Shown here one piece after another: positions 17,954 through 22,716 of a DNA stretch of 64,000 nt (positions are counted from its first letter, which is position 1; every line of letters begins with the position of its first letter). The position numbers were made by a program, and so were the translations under genes. The DNA comes from an uncultured beta proteobacterium (GTDB lineage Bacteria > Pseudomonadota > Gammaproteobacteria > Burkholderiales > SG8-41): NCBI GenBank assembly GCA_903889565.1, contig CAISYC010000049.1, forward strand, positions 73,873 to 137,872, read 5' to 3'. Under the pieces are notes generated by a model. The model was not told where the DNA came from, ran no database searches, and saw only the letters and a list, made by a program, of their open reading frames with translations.

Positions 17954-18919
17954 CTACTGCGGCTCAATCCGGTTATCGCGTATCACCTTCGCCCAGCGCG
18001 CGATATCGCTCTTGATGCTCGCCGCAAATTCGGCCGGCGTGCTCGCCACCACATCCACGCCATCCTGCTCGAAGCGCTTGGCCACATCCGGCGCGCGCAT
18101 GGCCTTGGCGATGGCGTCGCTCAGTATCTGCACGATCGCCGGCGGGGTGGCGGCCGGCACCAGCATGCCCCACCAGCTTGAGAATTCGTAACCGCGCACC
18201 GTTTCGCCGATGGTCGGCAGATCCGGCAGGCTCGCCGAACGCTTGACGCTGGTGATCCCCAGCGCGCGCAGCTTGCCGGCCTGAACATGCGGCAGCGCCG
18301 GTTGCACGCCGATGAAACTCAGATCCGCCTCACCGCCCACCGTCGCGATCAGCGCCGCGCCGCCGCCCTTGTAAGGCACGTGAACGATATCGGTCTTGGT
18401 CAGATTCTTGAACAGCTCGGCGGCGACGTGCAGATTGGTGCCGATGCCCGCCGAGGAATAATTGAGCTTGCCCGGCCGCTGCTTGGCCAGCGCAATGAAC
18501 TCCGCCACCGTCTTCGCCGGCACCGACGGATGCACCACCAGCACGAACGGCGAACTTGCCAGCAACGACACCGGCGCGAAATCCTTCACCGTATCGTAGG
18601 GCAGTTTCTTGTAGAGACTCGGGTTGACCACGAACGGCAGCGTATTGAGCAGGATCGTGTGGCCGTCCGGCGCCGCATGCGCGACCACTTCGGTGCCGAT
18701 GCTGCCCGACGCCCCCGGCCGGTAATCGATCACGAACTGCTGGCCCAGCGACTGGCTGACGCGATCGAACACCAGACGCCCCAGCGAATCGAGACTGCCG
18801 CCGGGGGGATAAGGCAGGATGATGCGGACGACGTGGTTGGGGTAGGGTTGGGCAGACGCAAAACAGGCTGCGAACGCGCAATACACGGCAACAAATGCCG
18901 ACAATGCTTTGGCAAACAT
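17954..18919 (-). CDS. Bug/TctC-family substrate-binding protein
   Basis: 'YPNHVVRIILPYPPGGSLD', 'FVIDYRPGASG', 'HVPYKGGGA', 'PDLPTIGETV'. GAGGAG SD precedes ATG 18919. Confidence 0.9.
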   Translation of the reverse strand: MFAKALSAFVAVYCAFAACFASAQPYPNHVVRIILPYPPGGSLDSLGRLVFDRVSQSLGQQFVIDYRPGASGSIGTEVVAHAAPDGHTILLNTLPFVVNPSLYKKLPYDTVKDFAPVSLLASSPFVLVVHPSVPAKTVAEFIALAKQRPGKLNYSSAGIGTNLHVAAELFKNLTKTDIVHVPYKGGGAALIATVGGEADLSFIGVQPALPHVQAGKLRALGITSVKRSASLPDLPTIGETVRGYEFSSWWGMLVPAATPPAIVQILSDAIAKAMRAPDVAKRFEQDGVDVVASTPAEFAASIKSDIARWAKVIRDNRIEPQ

Positions 18920-18995
18920 TTTTACTCCTCAGTATTCGACCAGAATTATTGTTTTTTTGAAGAAACCTCGGGCAATTTATTTGCCCCAACATAAC

Positions 18996-19376
18996 TTAAG
19001 CGGCGTTCAGACTACGCCACCCCATTTCCTTCTGCAGTCGAGTGATCTGGCGCCTCAATCCTAATGCAGTAAGCGAACTCGGCCGTCCACCAATTCGAAA
19101 TTCGATATCAATCCAATTATGAGGAACTTCCGTAATAAGGTAGCAAACCCGGTTCACATGATGAGCGCCGGCAATAATCCACTGGAAAGAACCTGATTCA
19201 CCGTCAATCACTGTCCAAACATATGCCGGATCGTGATTCTTTACCGTTTCAAGATCTTTTCCAAATGACTCCAAGCCAAAACCGCCCCAAATTTCATATT
19301 GTGCGTCGGGGTGACGAAAAGGCTTGAAGTATTCGTAGAAAACATCCTCATGAAATACCGCCACCTCAATACTCAT
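18996..19376 (-). CDS. hypothetical protein (partner of DUF3883 nuclease)
   Basis: 126 aa from ATG 19374-19376, which overlaps the upstream gene's TGA as ATGA. Low-GC codon composition. No recognisable motif ('WTVIDGESGSFQWIIAGAHHVNRVCYLITEVPH'). Confidence 0.6.
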   Translation of the reverse strand: MSIEVAVFHEDVFYEYFKPFRHPDAQYEIWGGFGLESFGKDLETVKNHDPAYVWTVIDGESGSFQWIIAGAHHVNRVCYLITEVPHNWIDIEFRIGGRPSSLTALGLRRQITRLQKEMGWRSLNAA

Positions 19377-20224
19377 GAGAATCTGCCTTGATAAGTTATC
19401 GGATCTAAATGACAGTGTTTTTCTACTGCCCCCTTTAACGAGAATAAGCGCGGATCTTTCCGGAACTCGAATACACGATACAAATGGAAACAATCAGATT
19501 GGTTACGAGAAAATTCAACTTCATGCTTTGTGATGAAAAACGGCGTCTCTTTCCCGAATGAAGTGGTTTTGACCTCAATTAAACGATCACGTCCGTTCAA
19601 ATCGAAGGAGAGCACATCGAAACCAAGCCCATCGCCTCTCGTCTTTGAAACGTGCTCTACGTTGTCAGCCAGTTTCTTGTGACCAGCCGCGGATAGCCGC
19701 CATTTTTCATAATCCACTACAAATTCTTCACCGGCCAGACCCAATGAGGAGTTTTGCGCCTCCCTGCCGATGTAGTCACGCTTTACAACTTGTTTCGTTT
19801 CCCAAGCGTAATTTGCAGACTTTGCGTCACGAGCGGAATACTTTAGCTGAGGCGGCGCCTCAAGCAATTTCTCGAAATCTTTTATTAGCGGAGTGGTCGC
19901 GGGCATCTTCACCGCCGCTAGCGCAGTACGGTCGAGCTTCGTATCAGCTTTCAGACGGTCCGCGATCACATCGAAAAGCAGTGCCTGATAATTTCCCATT
20001 GGCTTGTATCCCGATATATAGGGATAGCCGAAATGGATAAGAATTGCACTGATGTTTTGATGCTTTAGTTCAACTGCGGCAGGTGTCCGTTGGTCCAGCT
20101 TTTGCAGCAAGGCACGCCGATGTTCCGTCTTATTAAACTGCTGCCCAGCAAGCTCAAGTGTGAGCATGTGAAAGTAGTCGGCAACCGTCGCCTCCACTTC
20201 TTCCCTTGTCCATGCCCGACTCAT
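19373..20224 (-). CDS. DUF3883/NOV_C-type PD-(D/E)xK nuclease-domain protein with uncharacterised N-terminal domain
   Basis: C-terminal 'GLAGEEFVVDYEKWRL...GDGLGFDVLSFDLNGRDRLIEVKTTSFGKETPFFITKHEVEFS...FHLYRVFEF' carries a D...ExK core and the DUF3883-type tail. N-terminus reads 'WTREEVEATVADYFHML...RTPAAVELKHQNISAIL...GYKPMGNYQ'. The gene is low-GC. Confidence 0.7.
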   Translation of the reverse strand: MSRAWTREEVEATVADYFHMLTLELAGQQFNKTEHRRALLQKLDQRTPAAVELKHQNISAILIHFGYPYISGYKPMGNYQALLFDVIADRLKADTKLDRTALAAVKMPATTPLIKDFEKLLEAPPQLKYSARDAKSANYAWETKQVVKRDYIGREAQNSSLGLAGEEFVVDYEKWRLSAAGHKKLADNVEHVSKTRGDGLGFDVLSFDLNGRDRLIEVKTTSFGKETPFFITKHEVEFSRNQSDCFHLYRVFEFRKDPRLFSLKGAVEKHCHLDPITYQGRFS

Positions 20225-20301
20225 TTTGGCTTCAATTACTCTTTCAAATAGAACTTTTCTACATCATATCTAAAAACTCAATTAAAACCACATCCAAAAC
20301 T

Positions 20302-21564
20302 CTACGGCCTCCGCCGCTCCCCCGTCACAATCCGCGAACTCCGCTCGAACGTCCAATACGCCCACGCCCAGTCGATCATGACGATGATGCGGTTGCGAAA
20401 GCCGATCAGATACCAGATGTGGGCGATCAGCCACAGCAGCCACGCCGGATATCCCGAGAGCTTGACCTTGCCGAGCACAGCGACAGCCGAATTGCGGCCG
20501 ATGGTGGCGAGCATGCCGTAGTCCTTGTAGCAGAACGGCGCCACGCTCTGCCCTTTCAACTGCTGCAAAATTTTATGCGCGGCATAGCTGCCCATCTGCT
20601 TGGCGGCGGGCGCGATGCCGGGCACCGGCGGCTGGTGCCACGGCAGCGTGGCGAGATCGCCGATCACCGTCACTTCGGGGTGGCCGGGAATCGACAGGTC
20701 TTCGCCGACGATCACGCGGCCGGCGCGGTCGCGCGGCACCTCGAGGCTCGCGCCCAAAGGTGAAGCAGCCACACCCGCCGCCCACACCACGGTGTGCGCC
20801 ACCAGCGTGTCGCCGCCCATTTGCACGCCGCGCTCGTCGATGCCGGTGACCTGCCGGCCAAGCCAGACGGTGACACCGAGACTTTCGAGTTGCAGGCGCG
20901 CCTGTTCGGAGAGCGAAGCCGGATAGGTCGGCAGCACGCGGTCACTGCCTTCGACGAGCACGATGCGCGCATTGCGCGGATCGAAGCGGCGGAATTCGCC
21001 GCGCAGCGTGTGACGCGCGATCTCGGCGAAAGCGCCGGCGAGTTCGACGCCGGTGGCGCCGGCGCCGATCACCACGAAGGTCAGCCACGCCGCGCGTTTG
21101 GCGAGATCGGTTTCGCGCTCGGCGTGCTCGAAAGCCAGCAGCACGCGGCGGCGGATTTCATAGGCGTCGTCGAGCGTTTTAAGGCTCGGCGCGTGCTGTT
21201 CCCATTCATTGTGGCCAAAGTAGCTGTTGGTGGCACCGGTGGCGACGATCAACTGGTCGTAGGCGATTTCATCGTCGCCGTCGAGCACCACCGCGCGTCG
21301 CGCCATATCGATGCGCTGCACGTCGCCGCAGATCACCGTCGCGTTGCTTTGCGACGCGAGGATGTTGCGGATGGGCGCGGCCACCGCCGGCGCCGACAGC
21401 CCCGCGGTGGCAACCTGATAGAGCAGCGGCTGAAACAGATGATGGTTGGTGCGGTCGACCACCGTCACTTCGACCGGCGCGCCGTCGAGCGACTTGGCCG
21501 CGAAAAGGCCGCCGAAGCCGCAGCCGAGAATCACCACACGGGGGAGTTTGCCGGAAGGAGTCAT
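20302..21564 (-). CDS. ndh: type II NADH:quinone oxidoreductase (NDH-2)
   Basis: Two dinucleotide folds ('VVILGCGFGGLFAAKSL' and 'FVVIGAGATGVELAG'). 420 aa with a C-terminal hydrophobic tail. Confidence 0.85.
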   Translation of the reverse strand: MTPSGKLPRVVILGCGFGGLFAAKSLDGAPVEVTVVDRTNHHLFQPLLYQVATAGLSAPAVAAPIRNILASQSNATVICGDVQRIDMARRAVVLDGDDEIAYDQLIVATGATNSYFGHNEWEQHAPSLKTLDDAYEIRRRVLLAFEHAERETDLAKRAAWLTFVVIGAGATGVELAGAFAEIARHTLRGEFRRFDPRNARIVLVEGSDRVLPTYPASLSEQARLQLESLGVTVWLGRQVTGIDERGVQMGGDTLVAHTVVWAAGVAASPLGASLEVPRDRAGRVIVGEDLSIPGHPEVTVIGDLATLPWHQPPVPGIAPAAKQMGSYAAHKILQQLKGQSVAPFCYKDYGMLATIGRNSAVAVLGKVKLSGYPAWLLWLIAHIWYLIGFRNRIIVMIDWAWAYWTFERSSRIVTGERRRP

Positions 21565-21617: not shown

Positions 21618-22001
21618 TCAGCCGCGGTTCTTTTCTTCGAGCCGCGCCTTCAGATCGGCAAACGGATTGAAGGTCGAGGCCGGCAGCGCATTGCCGCTGT
21701 CGCTGCGCCCGGCGGAATCTTTCAGCTTGGAGTGTTCGTGCTCGTGGCAATAGGTGCAGAGCAGTTCCCAGTTGCTGCCGTCGGCGGGATTGTCGTCGTG
21801 ATTGCCGTTCTTGTGATGCACTTCGAGCAGCTGCAGATTGGTGTGGGTGAAAGTGCGCGCGCAACCACCGCAGACCCACGGATACATTTTGAGCGCCCGC
21901 TCGCGATAGCCCGTCGCGCGCTGGTCAGCATTGCGACGCGCATCGCGAACAACCTGATCGAGACGTTTGGGGGGCGTGGGCATGGCACAAGCTTCGGCCA
22001 T
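21618..22001 (-). CDS. yajD: YajD-family HNH nuclease
   Basis: 'YRERALKMYPWVCGGCARTF...LEVHHKNGNHDDNPADGSNWELLCTYCHEHEHSK' closely parallels E. coli YajD. The start may be ATG 21983. Confidence 0.8.
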   Translation of the reverse strand: MAEACAMPTPPKRLDQVVRDARRNADQRATGYRERALKMYPWVCGGCARTFTHTNLQLLEVHHKNGNHDDNPADGSNWELLCTYCHEHEHSKLKDSAGRSDSGNALPASTFNPFADLKARLEEKNRG

Positions 22002-22116: not shown

Positions 22117-22413
22117 TCAGGGTCTACGATGCCAGATCGCAGGGTTGCGGCGGCCGTGAAACACGGCCAGCACCACCATCGAATCTGAACGAATGCGGAA
22201 ATAAATCGATTAGGGAAAGCGGCGGGCGACGGTGCGGTGAACGTCGCCGAAAACAACCGGATATCTCAATGGCGCCGATGCAGCGCTCGACAGTGACTGT
22301 TCAATCTCATATATGAACTCTTCGCCGAGACCCCGACGCTGTCCGTCATACCAGAGTGCTGCCTCTTCAAACTCGCGTATCGCAGCGCGCCGAAAAGCGA
22401 CGCGATAGCTCAT
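22117..22413 (-). pseudogene. parE: ParE/RelE-family toxin interrupted by in-frame TAA
   Basis: 67-aa N-terminal part ends '...VARRFP' at TAA 22210-22212. The same frame continues 'SIYFRIRSDSMVVLAVFHGRRNPAIWHRRP' to TGA 22117-22119. The stop replaces the conserved Tyr of 'RFPY.I.Y'. Confidence 0.75.
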
Positions 22414-22640
22414 CGCGCGAGGCGCGCCCGAAGCGACGCCTTGACATCATCCCACGGCAAAACATCCGCCGGAAACGCATCGTCATCAGCGACACGGCGA
22501 TCAAGCTCCGCGCGTTGCTCATCTGTCAACGGAAACGCTTTTGCATCAACGCAAATAGACGCCCAGATTTCTTCGACGAGGGCCAGTTTTTCATCGGTAT
22601 CAAGCCGATCAATTCCCAGAGTCTTAACGGAAACAGTCAT
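22410..22640 (-). CDS. addiction-module antitoxin (Unstab_antitox-like)
   Basis: 'LDTDEKLALVEEIWASI...LTDEQRAELDRRV' is typical of this antitoxin class. GGAGG SD lies 5 nt before ATG 22640. Its stop overlaps the parE start as ATGA. Confidence 0.7.
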   Translation of the reverse strand: MTVSVKTLGIDRLDTDEKLALVEEIWASICVDAKAFPLTDEQRAELDRRVADDDAFPADVLPWDDVKASLRARLAR

Positions 22641-22716
22641 TTTCACCTCCGTCAAAAATGGCAATTTAGCACGCGATTGCGGCTCCGGGTTGGACAGCGC
22701 ATTTACGCCAGTCGAA

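Follow-up and report, generated by a model that had tools for sequence, protein, structure and literature searches.

Several described defence enzymes have a catalytic domain resembling that of gene A, the nuclease gene considered here. PD-T4-1, which is an experimentally validated anti-T4 system of E. coli, and Tiamat/TmtA have a C-terminal NOV_C/DUF3883 domain in common with A (E 8e-19 and 1.5e-12, respectively), but in both only residues 143-282 of A align (to positions 232-377 of 383 in the PD-T4-1 model) and the N-terminal regions are unrelated, and so A was rejected as a member of either system. In HmaA the NOV_C nuclease domain has a PD-(D/E)xK core and is needed for defence (PMC11232893), and in the modification-dependent enzyme YenY4I the DUF3883 is the catalytic domain (PMC6765204). 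These two and McaZI have a catalytic domain with a PD-(D/E)xK core as in A and their genes lie in defence islands, those of the McaZI type adjoining DUF2075/SLFN-like NTPases, which are another partner class of the second protein of our locus, gene B. A differs from all three in a helical N-terminus of another, uncharacterised kind and in having no Snf2 helicase, PUA or DUF3427 sensing domain, Pfam at E <= 1 giving NOV_C alone. With no PUA or DUF3427 fused to its DUF3883, A was also rejected as a modification-dependent enzyme of the YenY4I/McaZI type.

The nearest family is PDC-S36, a single-gene candidate among the 145 candidates that make up the PDC systems (Payne et al., bioRxiv 10.1101/2024.01.29.577857). 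No paper on PDC-S36 was found in the literature, nor is the system named in the supplements to the PADLOC preprint. Its candidate status counts against the explanation of the locus that we favour below. Whereas PDC-S36 is defined as a single gene, it is accompanied by B here and at about 12 other loci. Quite how nuclease-only defence genes spare their own chromosome without a methylase is a question that PDC-S36, PDC-S41 and stand-alone HNH enzymes have in common. The new part is B, a small unannotated protein with an unmatched fold, which is the constant companion of several unrelated restriction-type enzymes and a promising new accessory in bacterial immunity.

A low-GC islet and its nuclease

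The window, that is the whole stretch of DNA that was analysed, is 64 kb long. The features of the locus within it are as follows.

17954..18919, minus strand: TctC/Bug gene, flanking
18920..20301, no strand: low-GC islet, from the ndh stop to the TctC start, defined by G+C and with differing cargo in relatives
18920..18995, minus strand: spacer 3' of gene B, 35.5% G+C
18996..19376, minus strand: gene B, 126 aa, ATG start, undescribed family (from homologues and model)
18999..19088, minus strand: B residues 97-126, basic C-terminal helix, pI 12, net charge +5, conserved SLTxLGLxR
19089..19376, minus strand: B residues 1-96, acidic alpha/beta core, pI 4.85, net charge -9
19373..19376, minus strand: ATGA, overlap of A stop and B start, presumed translational coupling as read from the sequence
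19373..20224, minus strand: gene A, PDC-S36-type restriction-like nuclease, 283 aa, ATG start (PADLOC match)
19442..19732, minus strand: A residues 165-261, NOV_C/DUF3883 PD-(D/E)xK nuclease domain (Pfam PF13020)
19616-19618, 19574-19576 and 19568-19570, minus strand: D203, E217 and K219, which with E166 are the putative catalytic residues of A (from conservation)
19775..19906, minus strand: A residues 107-150, linker, partly disordered (pLDDT <50 at 130-138)
19907..20224, minus strand: A residues 1-106, all-helical N-terminal module with the motif WTxEE ... RTxxAVxxKxxN ... GYKPxGN
20225..20301, minus strand: leader 5' of gene A, intergenic, AT-rich, 27% G+C, presumed promoter region
20302..21564, minus strand: ndh, flanking gene

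A sequence-only reading of this DNA had placed two minus-strand genes with an ATGA overlap between ndh and the Bug gene, and the coordinates are as it described. The sharply deviant composition it had reported holds up in a sliding G+C calculation, where the low-GC islet of 1,382 bp and two genes has 45.7% G+C against 63.2% (sd 1.65) in all other 1,382-nt windows (z = -10.7) and is the lowest of any stretch across the 64 kb. GC3 is 0.49 in gene A and 0.43 in gene B, whereas TctC and ndh both lie at 0.82-0.83, and the low-GC stretch reaches exactly to the stop codon of ndh on one side and the start codon of TctC on the other. As had been noted by eye, the borders are unmarked: our searches found no integrase and no notable flanking direct or inverted repeats there, and no tRNA gene across the whole window. 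The comparison of the ndh-Bug junction that had been proposed shows differing cargo at the site, relatives with flanks 83-87% identical having other genes at the same locus; the order there is yajD>PDC-S41>B>TctC in two loci (L003 and L012) and yajD>A>B in a third (L091). Given the G+C deviation, the GC3 gap and this variable cargo, the islet is compositionally foreign and its horizontal acquisition, at a hotspot, is supported.

A promoter is presumed to lie in the leader of gene A, where a consensus scan of the islet's strand gave no sigma-70-like site. AAGG sits 10-13 nt 5' of the ATG of B, and the spacer beyond B contains both a terminator-like hairpin, GGGCAAATAAATTGCCC at 18970-18986, and the ribosome-binding site of the TctC gene.

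Gene A is, as judged from its sequence, a stand-alone restriction-like DNase of the PDC-S36 family. Its residues 2-282 match the PADLOC model (HMM PDLC05008) over positions 2-279 of 280 with E 6e-110 and 365 bits, and full-length matches are also seen in L001, L099, L105 and the plasmid protein WP_000080860.1. The D...ExK nuclease with a DUF3883/NOV_C tail that was first recognised by eye is confirmed by Pfam (PF13020, E 8.7e-23, 80.7 bits against a cut-off of 22.1) and by the invariance of E166, D203, E217 and K219 across 40 homologues. An AlphaFold2 model of A (pLDDT 88, pTM 0.84) has helices at residues 7-25, 32-42, 48-64, 81-93 and 95-106 in the N-terminal module, to which Pfam gives no match, and a fold search of A returned weak matches to the SPARDA nuclease, AvaII, MGME1 and Hjc. 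The N-terminal ~100 aa had been thought common to HNH nucleases, and this is moderately supported by similarity between the N-terminus of A and that of the HNH_2 nucleases paired with B (E 0.002 in BLASTP; E 1.2e-4 in hhalign, with probability 55% over 75 columns at 31% identity). The statement that the pairing belongs to no named system survives for B, which is in no PADLOC model, and fails for the nuclease, which is PDC-S36 end to end.

The B family and its relatives in mobile elements

We define the B family by a core of ~90 aa with shared motifs, a basic helix, and a gene adjoining a restriction-type effector; gene B has the core motifs, the C-terminal helix and the effector neighbour. The motifs of the core, EDxFxxxFKP, an FETYG-like sequence (LESFG here), VWT and HxVNRxxY/HxVNRxGY, extend superfamily-wide. 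The basic C-terminal helix is specific to the chromosomal B subfamily; conserved as it is, it points to a role in binding nucleic acid or in oligomerisation more than to DNA mimicry, which counts against the explanation that we favour. Homologues of B fall into 48 clusters at 50-72% identity, relatives are present in 158 species genomes, and a profile search gives 1,858 relatives at E <= 1e-3. Judged from such alignments B is a real gene under strong purifying selection, with dN/dS of 0.11-0.30 where measurable (dN 0.23-0.47, synonymous sites saturated) and fourteen invariant columns. A zinc site at H9/H22/C78/H86 was considered and rejected, as the conservation of C78 and H86 does not extend to the wider superfamily.

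The earlier remark that the 126-aa partner has no placeable motif extends to every collection searched: the B family has no match in Pfam, PADLOC, NCBIfam or PHROGs, nor in the PDB by sequence profile (best E 0.5) or by fold (best E 0.2, TM-score <0.2). Neither HMM nor fold matches allowed B to be placed as ArdA, ArdB/KlcA, ArdC, Ocr or SUKH/Imm, or as HEPN, Vsr, TIR or a controller protein. B is nonetheless tractable, being a soluble protein of 126 aa with a confident model (pLDDT 90, pTM 0.83) and clear invariant residues (E36, W54, T55, N75, R76 and Y79).

Distant relatives of B are acidic (median pI 4.3) and occur in mobile elements. Seven phage proteins share the B fold, and a scan of viral contigs with a tight alignment of the B domain found 30 that encode a B-like domain, with the B-like gene immediately after those for ParB_N and an N6 DNA methylase. 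B-like genes also lie on conjugative plasmids near tra genes, and the neighbours of such genes in phages and conjugative plasmids include orphan methylases, ParB and ArdC-type blocks. Close relatives were found neither in the phage collection nor in the plasmid collection, the latter giving only four distant matches. One B relative is fused to a 90-aa domain, the family of which is encoded directly downstream of ArdC and for which a name and Pfam look-up gives just 'hypothetical protein'. Both ArdC and the leading regions of plasmids are well-established contexts of anti-restriction (PMC7213743, PMC11541004), and the distant B-like proteins resemble the anti-restriction and establishment proteins of ArdC blocks, plasmid leading regions and phage early regions in being small, acidic and encoded in such regions. 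This gene neighbourhood suggests that the mobile-element relatives of B are tied to anti-restriction, although B itself matches no ArdA, ArdB/KlcA, ArdC or Ocr model. In contrast to the establishment proteins of plasmids and phages, chromosomal B has the added basic helix and sits within host defence cassettes.

Linkage of B to restriction-type effectors

About 96 B neighbourhoods were examined, and in most a restriction-type gene lies directly 5' of B on the same strand, with a small protein, S120, between effector and B in ~24. The commonest arrangement is HNH2>B (41 loci), followed by HNH2>S120>B (about 20), PDC-S41>B (7), PDC-S36>B (5, and 6-8 more in other orientations) and SauUSI-like enzymes (2). 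The effectors are an HNH_2 nuclease, a Dcm-HNH_2 fusion, PDC-S36, a PDC-S41 helicase and a SauUSI-like type IV enzyme, and many of the HNH_2 partners have a C5 DNA methylase fused to them or encoded alongside. HNH_2 nucleases (PADLOC 'HNH' models PDLC04132 and PDLC03546) have an N-terminal WTxEE module like that of A and differ from A in their catalytic domain, which is HNH_2 and not PD-(D/E)xK. This WTxEE module, which A shares, is present in about 79% of B partners.

The gap from B to the upstream gene is mostly -11 to +55 nt, and in ~85% of loci the immediate upstream gene is on the same strand with tight spacing or overlapping stop and start. Almost every B gene stands with a nuclease or helicase gene. 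In 56 of 59 loci B has a lower G+C than its distal flanks, the mean difference being 10 points. Its sequence, including the SLTxLGLxR helix, stays 55-72% identical while partners switch between unrelated folds; effector types are intermixed in the B tree, partners having been exchanged among closely related B genes.

For the A-B pair itself, a PDC-S36-type gene adjoins a B gene at 13 loci elsewhere, in four relative orientations that include tandem, divergent and convergent. The convergent and divergent pairs count against the explanation that we favour. The two-gene pairing proposed in the sequence-only reading is thereby recovered as co-occurrence and not as an exclusive bond, since the usual partner of B is HNH_2 and PDC-S41 and SauUSI-like enzymes also serve. 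Nor does the A family depend on B. It is common and usually alone: of 1,119 plasmid records with a full-length homologue not one has a close B, and B is missing also beside relatives that are 71-78% identical to A and beside the A-family genes of L094-L096, L099-L100 and L105-L108 (L094 and L095/96 being close relatives). In one protein collection there are 48 clusters for B; for A there are at least 5,976 at E <= 0.001, a number that takes in any NOV_C-domain protein.

Possible roles of B

With at least five unrelated effectors, and relatives in anti-restriction regions, B suggests itself as a candidate for the control element that nuclease-only defence otherwise lacks. The explanation that we favour, and hold tentatively, is that the locus is a mobile cassette for defence and that B serves to restrain or modulate the nuclease. 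The islet would be a horizontally acquired defence cassette, placed downstream of a yajD-like gene at a chromosomal hotspot of variable content. In A the helical N-terminal module would sense or bind DNA and be joined by the flexible linker to the NOV_C catalytic domain, which may cleave DNA in defence, and B would be translated from the message of A through the ATGA coupling. The B family would then be an exchangeable accessory of restriction-type effectors, most of them having an A-like N-terminal module fused to HNH_2 or NOV_C. B itself could act as a protein 'safety catch' on the co-expressed nuclease, related to the small acidic proteins of phage and plasmid anti-restriction and establishment regions; we infer that it contacts the nuclease or its DNA substrate with inhibitory effect. 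A methylase-less nuclease might in this way be carried safely and be released or redirected on infection. Against this explanation, the A family thrives without B, which argues that the nuclease needs no inhibitor, and the constancy of B while partners change is better fitted by a constant ligand (DNA, or a host or phage factor) than by partner-specific binding.

If B does inhibit or gate nucleases it would be a new anti-restriction or immunity family and would help to annotate about 1,900 nameless proteins, and if it does not, the PADLOC candidates PDC-S36, PDC-S41 and HNH gain an optional second gene. A more speculative idea, of which we are rather doubtful, is that B belongs to a new superfamily, with a fold without solved counterpart, used on both sides of the arms race, the small acidic forms of phages and plasmids serving in anti-restriction and the chromosomal form, with its added basic helix, having been domesticated as a universal and exchangeable 'safety catch' or trigger. 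Were that true, a B subunit would turn HNH_2, PDC-S36, PDC-S41 and SauUSI-like effectors into methylase-independent inducible defence modules.

Conservation of B and its SLTxLGLxR helix whatever the partner class, the autonomy of partners that exist alone too, and a gene order and coupling expected to give co-expression would all suit B as a positive accessory. In the part of a sensor or activator, of a factor binding DNA or DNA ends, or of a scaffold for oligomerisation, B would recognise a constant ligand (phage DNA, a phage protein or a host factor) and then switch on or target the nuclease or helicase encoded upstream. We consider such a role somewhat doubtful: B has no recognisable nucleotide-binding, enzymatic or DNA-binding fold, and anti-restriction-type neighbourhoods of the phage and plasmid relatives suit an inhibitor over a host sensor. 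It is also conceivable that B works independently of A, either hitchhiking in the mobile cassette, for instance as an anti-restriction or establishment factor by which the incoming DNA survives in a new host, or with its sequence serving mainly as a conserved anchor for recombinational exchange of the upstream effector. The partner swaps among closely related B genes, the single chromosomal slot in which B stands with different effectors, the four orientations, the foreign composition of cassettes in 56 of 59 loci and the establishment-type regions of the mobile-element relatives are all in keeping with this. It seems improbable, however, because the tight same-strand spacing or overlap in ~85% of loci points to an operon with shared function, B almost never stands apart from a nuclease or helicase gene, and strong purifying selection indicates a protein function and not merely a DNA anchor.

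In colicin DNase-immunity pairs the immunity gene lies immediately downstream of the nuclease gene, as B does. A nuclease gene placed first with a small acidic protein ATGA-coupled 3' of it, in a foreign islet, recalls these pairs and reversed toxin-antitoxin operons, and Panacea/PanA (PMC8832971) offers a precedent for a promiscuous antitoxin domain that, like B, is one small family with many unrelated effector domains or toxins. Such likenesses would make A a constitutively toxic DNase and B its dedicated tight-binding antidote in an obligate type II toxin-antitoxin or toxin-immunity system. B has, however, no sequence or fold likeness to Panacea/PanA or colicin immunity proteins and, in contrast to these, varies little between unrelated partners, which are usually viable without it. 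Obligate co-occurrence was not found: B pairs with at least five effector types, full-length PDC-S36 genes unaccompanied by B are present on those 1,119 plasmid records and in the relatives with 71-78% identity to A, the cluster counts are those given above, and no shared operator for autoregulation is seen upstream of the cassettes. With several effectors for B, an A family mostly without it and varied orientations, a classical obligate toxin-immunity pair is unlikely, and in the strict form of a toxic DNase with a dedicated antidote we regard it as very improbable. Of the toxin-immunity or anti-phage module proposed from sequence, the anti-phage half is the one that remains plausible, as an accessory role for B. 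Regulators of the BrxR/CapW type accompany many different defence systems, and B likewise goes with a wide range of defence effectors, and its C-terminal helix is basic. The idea that B, as a small protein, regulates transcription or translation of the cassette in the manner of these or of restriction-modification controller proteins nevertheless has very little to commend it, as B has no helix-turn-helix or other known DNA-binding fold and no shared operator-like motif was seen 5' of cassettes with different partner types. The Dcm-HNH_2 loci, moreover, have a helix-turn-helix domain and a conserved upstream sequence of their own, and B lies downstream of its effector and not upstream.

The islet and its nuclease

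The gap between ndh and the TctC/Bug gene is filled by two minus-strand ORFs, A and B, and the two-gene layout of the sequence-only reading, with its coordinates and stop-start overlap, is confirmed by the ORFs of the window.

20302..21564, minus strand: ndh, flank of the islet
19373..20224, minus strand: gene A, ORF of 283 aa
19373-19376, minus strand: ATGA, overlap of the A stop and B start
18996..19376, minus strand: gene B, ORF of 126 aa
18970-18986, minus strand: terminator-like hairpin after B
17954..18919, minus strand: TctC/Bug gene, other flank of the islet

The islet (18920-20301, 1,382 bp) has 45.7% G+C against 63.2% (sd 1.65) for same-size windows elsewhere (z = -10.7), the lowest value in the whole 64 kb when scanned at that size, and so the sharp departure in composition is borne out. 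GC3 is 0.49 in A and 0.43 in B, compared with 0.82-0.83 in the flanking genes. The 64-kb window contains no tRNA gene and the islet is not flanked by any repeats of note, in agreement with borders described as lacking tRNAs and direct repeats. The islet is a cassette of defence type that arrived by horizontal transfer.

A second, smaller G+C dip (0.53-0.57) lies at 22210-22664 on the minus strand, just beyond a yajD-like HNH gene (21618-22001; PF01844). It encodes an 84-aa protein with an Unstab_antitox 'addiction module component' domain (PF09720, E 9e-13), the gene of which overlaps a 67-aa ORF without a Pfam match, and together they probably form a small toxin-antitoxin module.

A is a PDC-S36 PD-(D/E)xK nuclease and a candidate defence gene. 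Its DUF3883/NOV_C assignment, originally made by eye, holds in Pfam (residues 165-261, E 8.7e-23), with E166, D203, E217 and K219 invariant in 40 homologues. In PADLOC, A matches PDC-S36, a single-gene candidate, along its whole length (E 6e-110; residues 2-282, model of 280 positions), and the PD-T4-1 and TmtA models match its C-terminal domain only. The 145 PDC systems are untested candidates that were predicted from genes within or associated with known defence systems (bioRxiv 10.1101/2024.01.29.577857). A alone is thus already catalogued as a candidate; the earlier statement that the pairing fits no named system stands for the A+B arrangement, which has no PADLOC entry.

The AlphaFold2 model of A (pLDDT 88) falls into three parts. 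An N-terminal module of five helices (7-106) is followed by a linker, disordered in part, and by a C-terminal alpha/beta domain whose best, though weak, structural neighbours are PD-(D/E)xK enzymes (the SPARDA nuclease, AvaII, MGME1 and Hjc). HmaA-mediated defence depends on NOV_C (PMC11232893), and the modification-dependent enzyme YenY4I has it as its catalytic domain (PMC6765204). The N-terminal module, here called WTxEE, resembles the N-terminus of an HNH_2 nuclease family by BLASTP (E 0.002) and hhalign (E 1.2e-4, probability 55%, 75 columns), and so the likeness to an HNH-fused module put forward from the sequence alone has moderate support.

Gene B across loci

B is an undescribed accessory gene under constraint, and its family is linked to restriction-type effectors of several unrelated kinds. 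Its homologues form 48 clusters (50-72% identity), all unnamed or 'hypothetical', and a search of 185,579 species-representative genomes finds relatives in 158, mostly Beta- and Zetaproteobacteria with a few Planctomycetota. The alignment has fourteen invariant columns; dN is 0.23-0.47 with synonymous sites saturated, and dN/dS is 0.11-0.30 in the measurable cases. The model is confident (pLDDT 90, pTM 0.83) and shows a beta-alpha-alpha-beta4 core that leads into a long helix at the C-terminus. For this protein the PDB gave no fold counterpart (best E 0.2, TM-score below 0.2) and no sequence-profile counterpart. That no motif could be recognised in B agrees with the absence of the family, and of the A+B arrangement, from Pfam, NCBIfam, PHROGs, PADLOC and PDB, and no paper on them was found. 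Several ENA records of the window's own organism leave B (18996-19376) uncalled, as a gap between the nuclease gene and TctC, and so the family is probably under-represented in protein databases.

About 96 loci were examined with an in-house ORF caller, representatives being checked with Pfam and PADLOC. In most, B is directly preceded on its own strand by a restriction-type effector, the gap being -11 to +55 nt in the majority of cases, and at about 24 an acidic protein of about 120 aa (S120) intervenes.

Partners of B at the examined loci
HNH_2 nuclease, 260-300 aa, with WTxEE module, directly upstream of B: 41 loci (PADLOC 'HNH' PDLC04132, E 4e-113)
Same HNH_2 nuclease, S120 intervening: about 20 loci
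SLFN/DUF2075-like helicase: 7 loci (PDC-S41, E 1e-277)
PDC-S36: 5 loci in tandem and 6-8 divergent or convergent
PLD-helicase-DUF3427 type IV enzyme: 2 loci (SauUSI-like, E 3e-183)

A-type and B genes thus do co-occur in other genomes. The A-type N-terminal module is present in about 79% of B partners. A C5 DNA methylase is fused or adjacent to HNH_2 at about 25 loci in all, and some HNH_2 partners join HTH, Dcm and HNH_2 in one chain of 680-715 aa.

The locus is a hotspot. Contigs with flanks 83-87% identical to the window differ from it in gene arrangement, and their B genes are only 69-72% identical to the window's B at the DNA level.

Gene order in the window and compared contigs
Window: yajD > ndh > A > B > TctC
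L003: yajD > PDC-S41 > B > TctC > Fic > ndh
L012: arrangement similar to L003
L091: yajD > A > B

B has a lower G+C than the distal flanks in 56 of the 59 loci with enough flank, by a mean of 10 points, and therefore the cassettes are persistently foreign.

Wider relatives and possible role of B

A profile search of 1.84 billion representative proteins yields 1,858 B relatives at E <= 1e-3, sharing a core of about 90 aa in which E36, T55, G70 and R76 are invariant and W54, N75 and Y79 nearly so. The wider relatives lack B's basic tail and are strongly acidic (median pI 4.3); in B itself the core has a pI of 4.85 and the tail one of 12. The fold is found in seven uncharacterised phage proteins (probability 1.0, TM-score 0.41-0.65), and the domain is encoded on 30 IMG/VR contigs inside arrays of small same-strand genes, on three of them directly after a ParB_N protein and an N6 DNA methylase; other viral neighbours are a DAM-like/GNAT protein, DUF1281_C, RtcB, DUF932 and DUF3846. 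Distant copies occur on four large plasmids, and in the three contexts examined lie among small unannotated genes, one 3 kb from traL. One relative is fused to a 90-aa domain of a family with at least 4,026 clusters, no Pfam entry and the motif GDWGDL...ITEADRS.TT.LLP, whose genes at L142:4001-4273 and L143:1778-2050 are directly downstream of ardC in a ParB_N-DUF6117-ArdC block. Both ArdC and the leading regions of plasmids are established as settings for anti-restriction (PMC7213743, PMC11541004), and by guilt by association the superfamily may be tied to these.

Because B is co-translated with a nuclease, has an acidic core and is akin to proteins of anti-restriction regions, we tentatively favour, as one possibility among several, a modulatory and probably restraining subunit of the co-expressed nuclease; a brake directed at DNA or at the substrate could work for unrelated DNA enzymes as well. 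Counting against this view, effectors do well without B and its sequence is barely altered when the partner differs, and the conserved basic helix suggests a constant ligand, which also counts against it. A positive sensor or activator is a somewhat doubtful alternative. A neighbour-joining tree of B mixes the partner classes and places the window's B with those of PDC-S41, HNH_2 and SauUSI-like partners, and A and B identities across loci are not congruent. That B is an independent hitchhiker or recombination anchor seems unlikely.

A is common and usually alone, with at least 5,976 matching clusters (E <= 0.001, a count that includes any NOV_C-domain protein). A full-length homologue (about 45% identity) is on 1,119 records of a plasmid collection, mostly from Enterobacterales with some Acinetobacter, none of which carries a close B. 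One example, WP_000080860.1, from enterobacterial and Acinetobacter resistance plasmids, is PDC-S36 at E 6e-107; it has 378 aa, about 97 of them in an additional N-terminal extension. Two records were inspected for its surroundings, and the gene is near aac(3)-IId on pBJAB0715 (L146:3701-4837) and has IS26 on both sides on pEc55_1 (L147:3701-4837). Closer relatives of A (71-78% identity; L094, L095/96) also lack B, and an obligate toxin-antitoxin pair of A and B is quite improbable. No shared operator was seen upstream of B cassettes, and B as a regulator is the most improbable reading, hardly to be expected. Nuclease-based defence cassettes are already known as a kind; new here are the pairing of A with B and, chiefly, the B family. 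B can be tested as a candidate control of methylase-less nucleases, and its family may form a new anti-restriction superfamily.

Minor features of the B loci

S120 (L052:9606-9977 and about 23 other loci, among them L016, L023, L028 and L058) is placed between the HNH_2 or SauUSI-like gene and B, its stop usually overlapping the B start, and gives a variant cassette of three genes; neither Pfam nor PADLOC has a match for it. Fusions of HTH, C5 DNA methylase, WTxEE module and HNH_2 lie upstream of B at L013:7737-9797, L019:6845-8992 and about ten other loci, with a conserved upstream sequence, roughly TTGACTGG...CATA.TGTCCGCA. Intact ORFs of 130-135 aa lie just 3' of B at L055:1877-2269, L085:10406-10813 and some 15 further loci. 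Their similarity to type II restriction enzymes of the MvaI/BcnI type is confined to the C-terminal third of those enzymes (positions 274-403/405 in the REase_II model of PADLOC; 132-227/227 in Pfam MvaI_BcnI). Either they are what is left of a restriction gene that the HNH_2-B cassette displaced, or they are a small subunit that was kept. In Polaromonas (L017, L043, L075, L078, L082) a recurrent hairpin, ACCCAGG-N5-CCTGGGT, lies 60-100 bp upstream of the first gene of the cassette. It includes CCWGG sites and could mark the cassette boundary or serve as a terminator or REP-like element.
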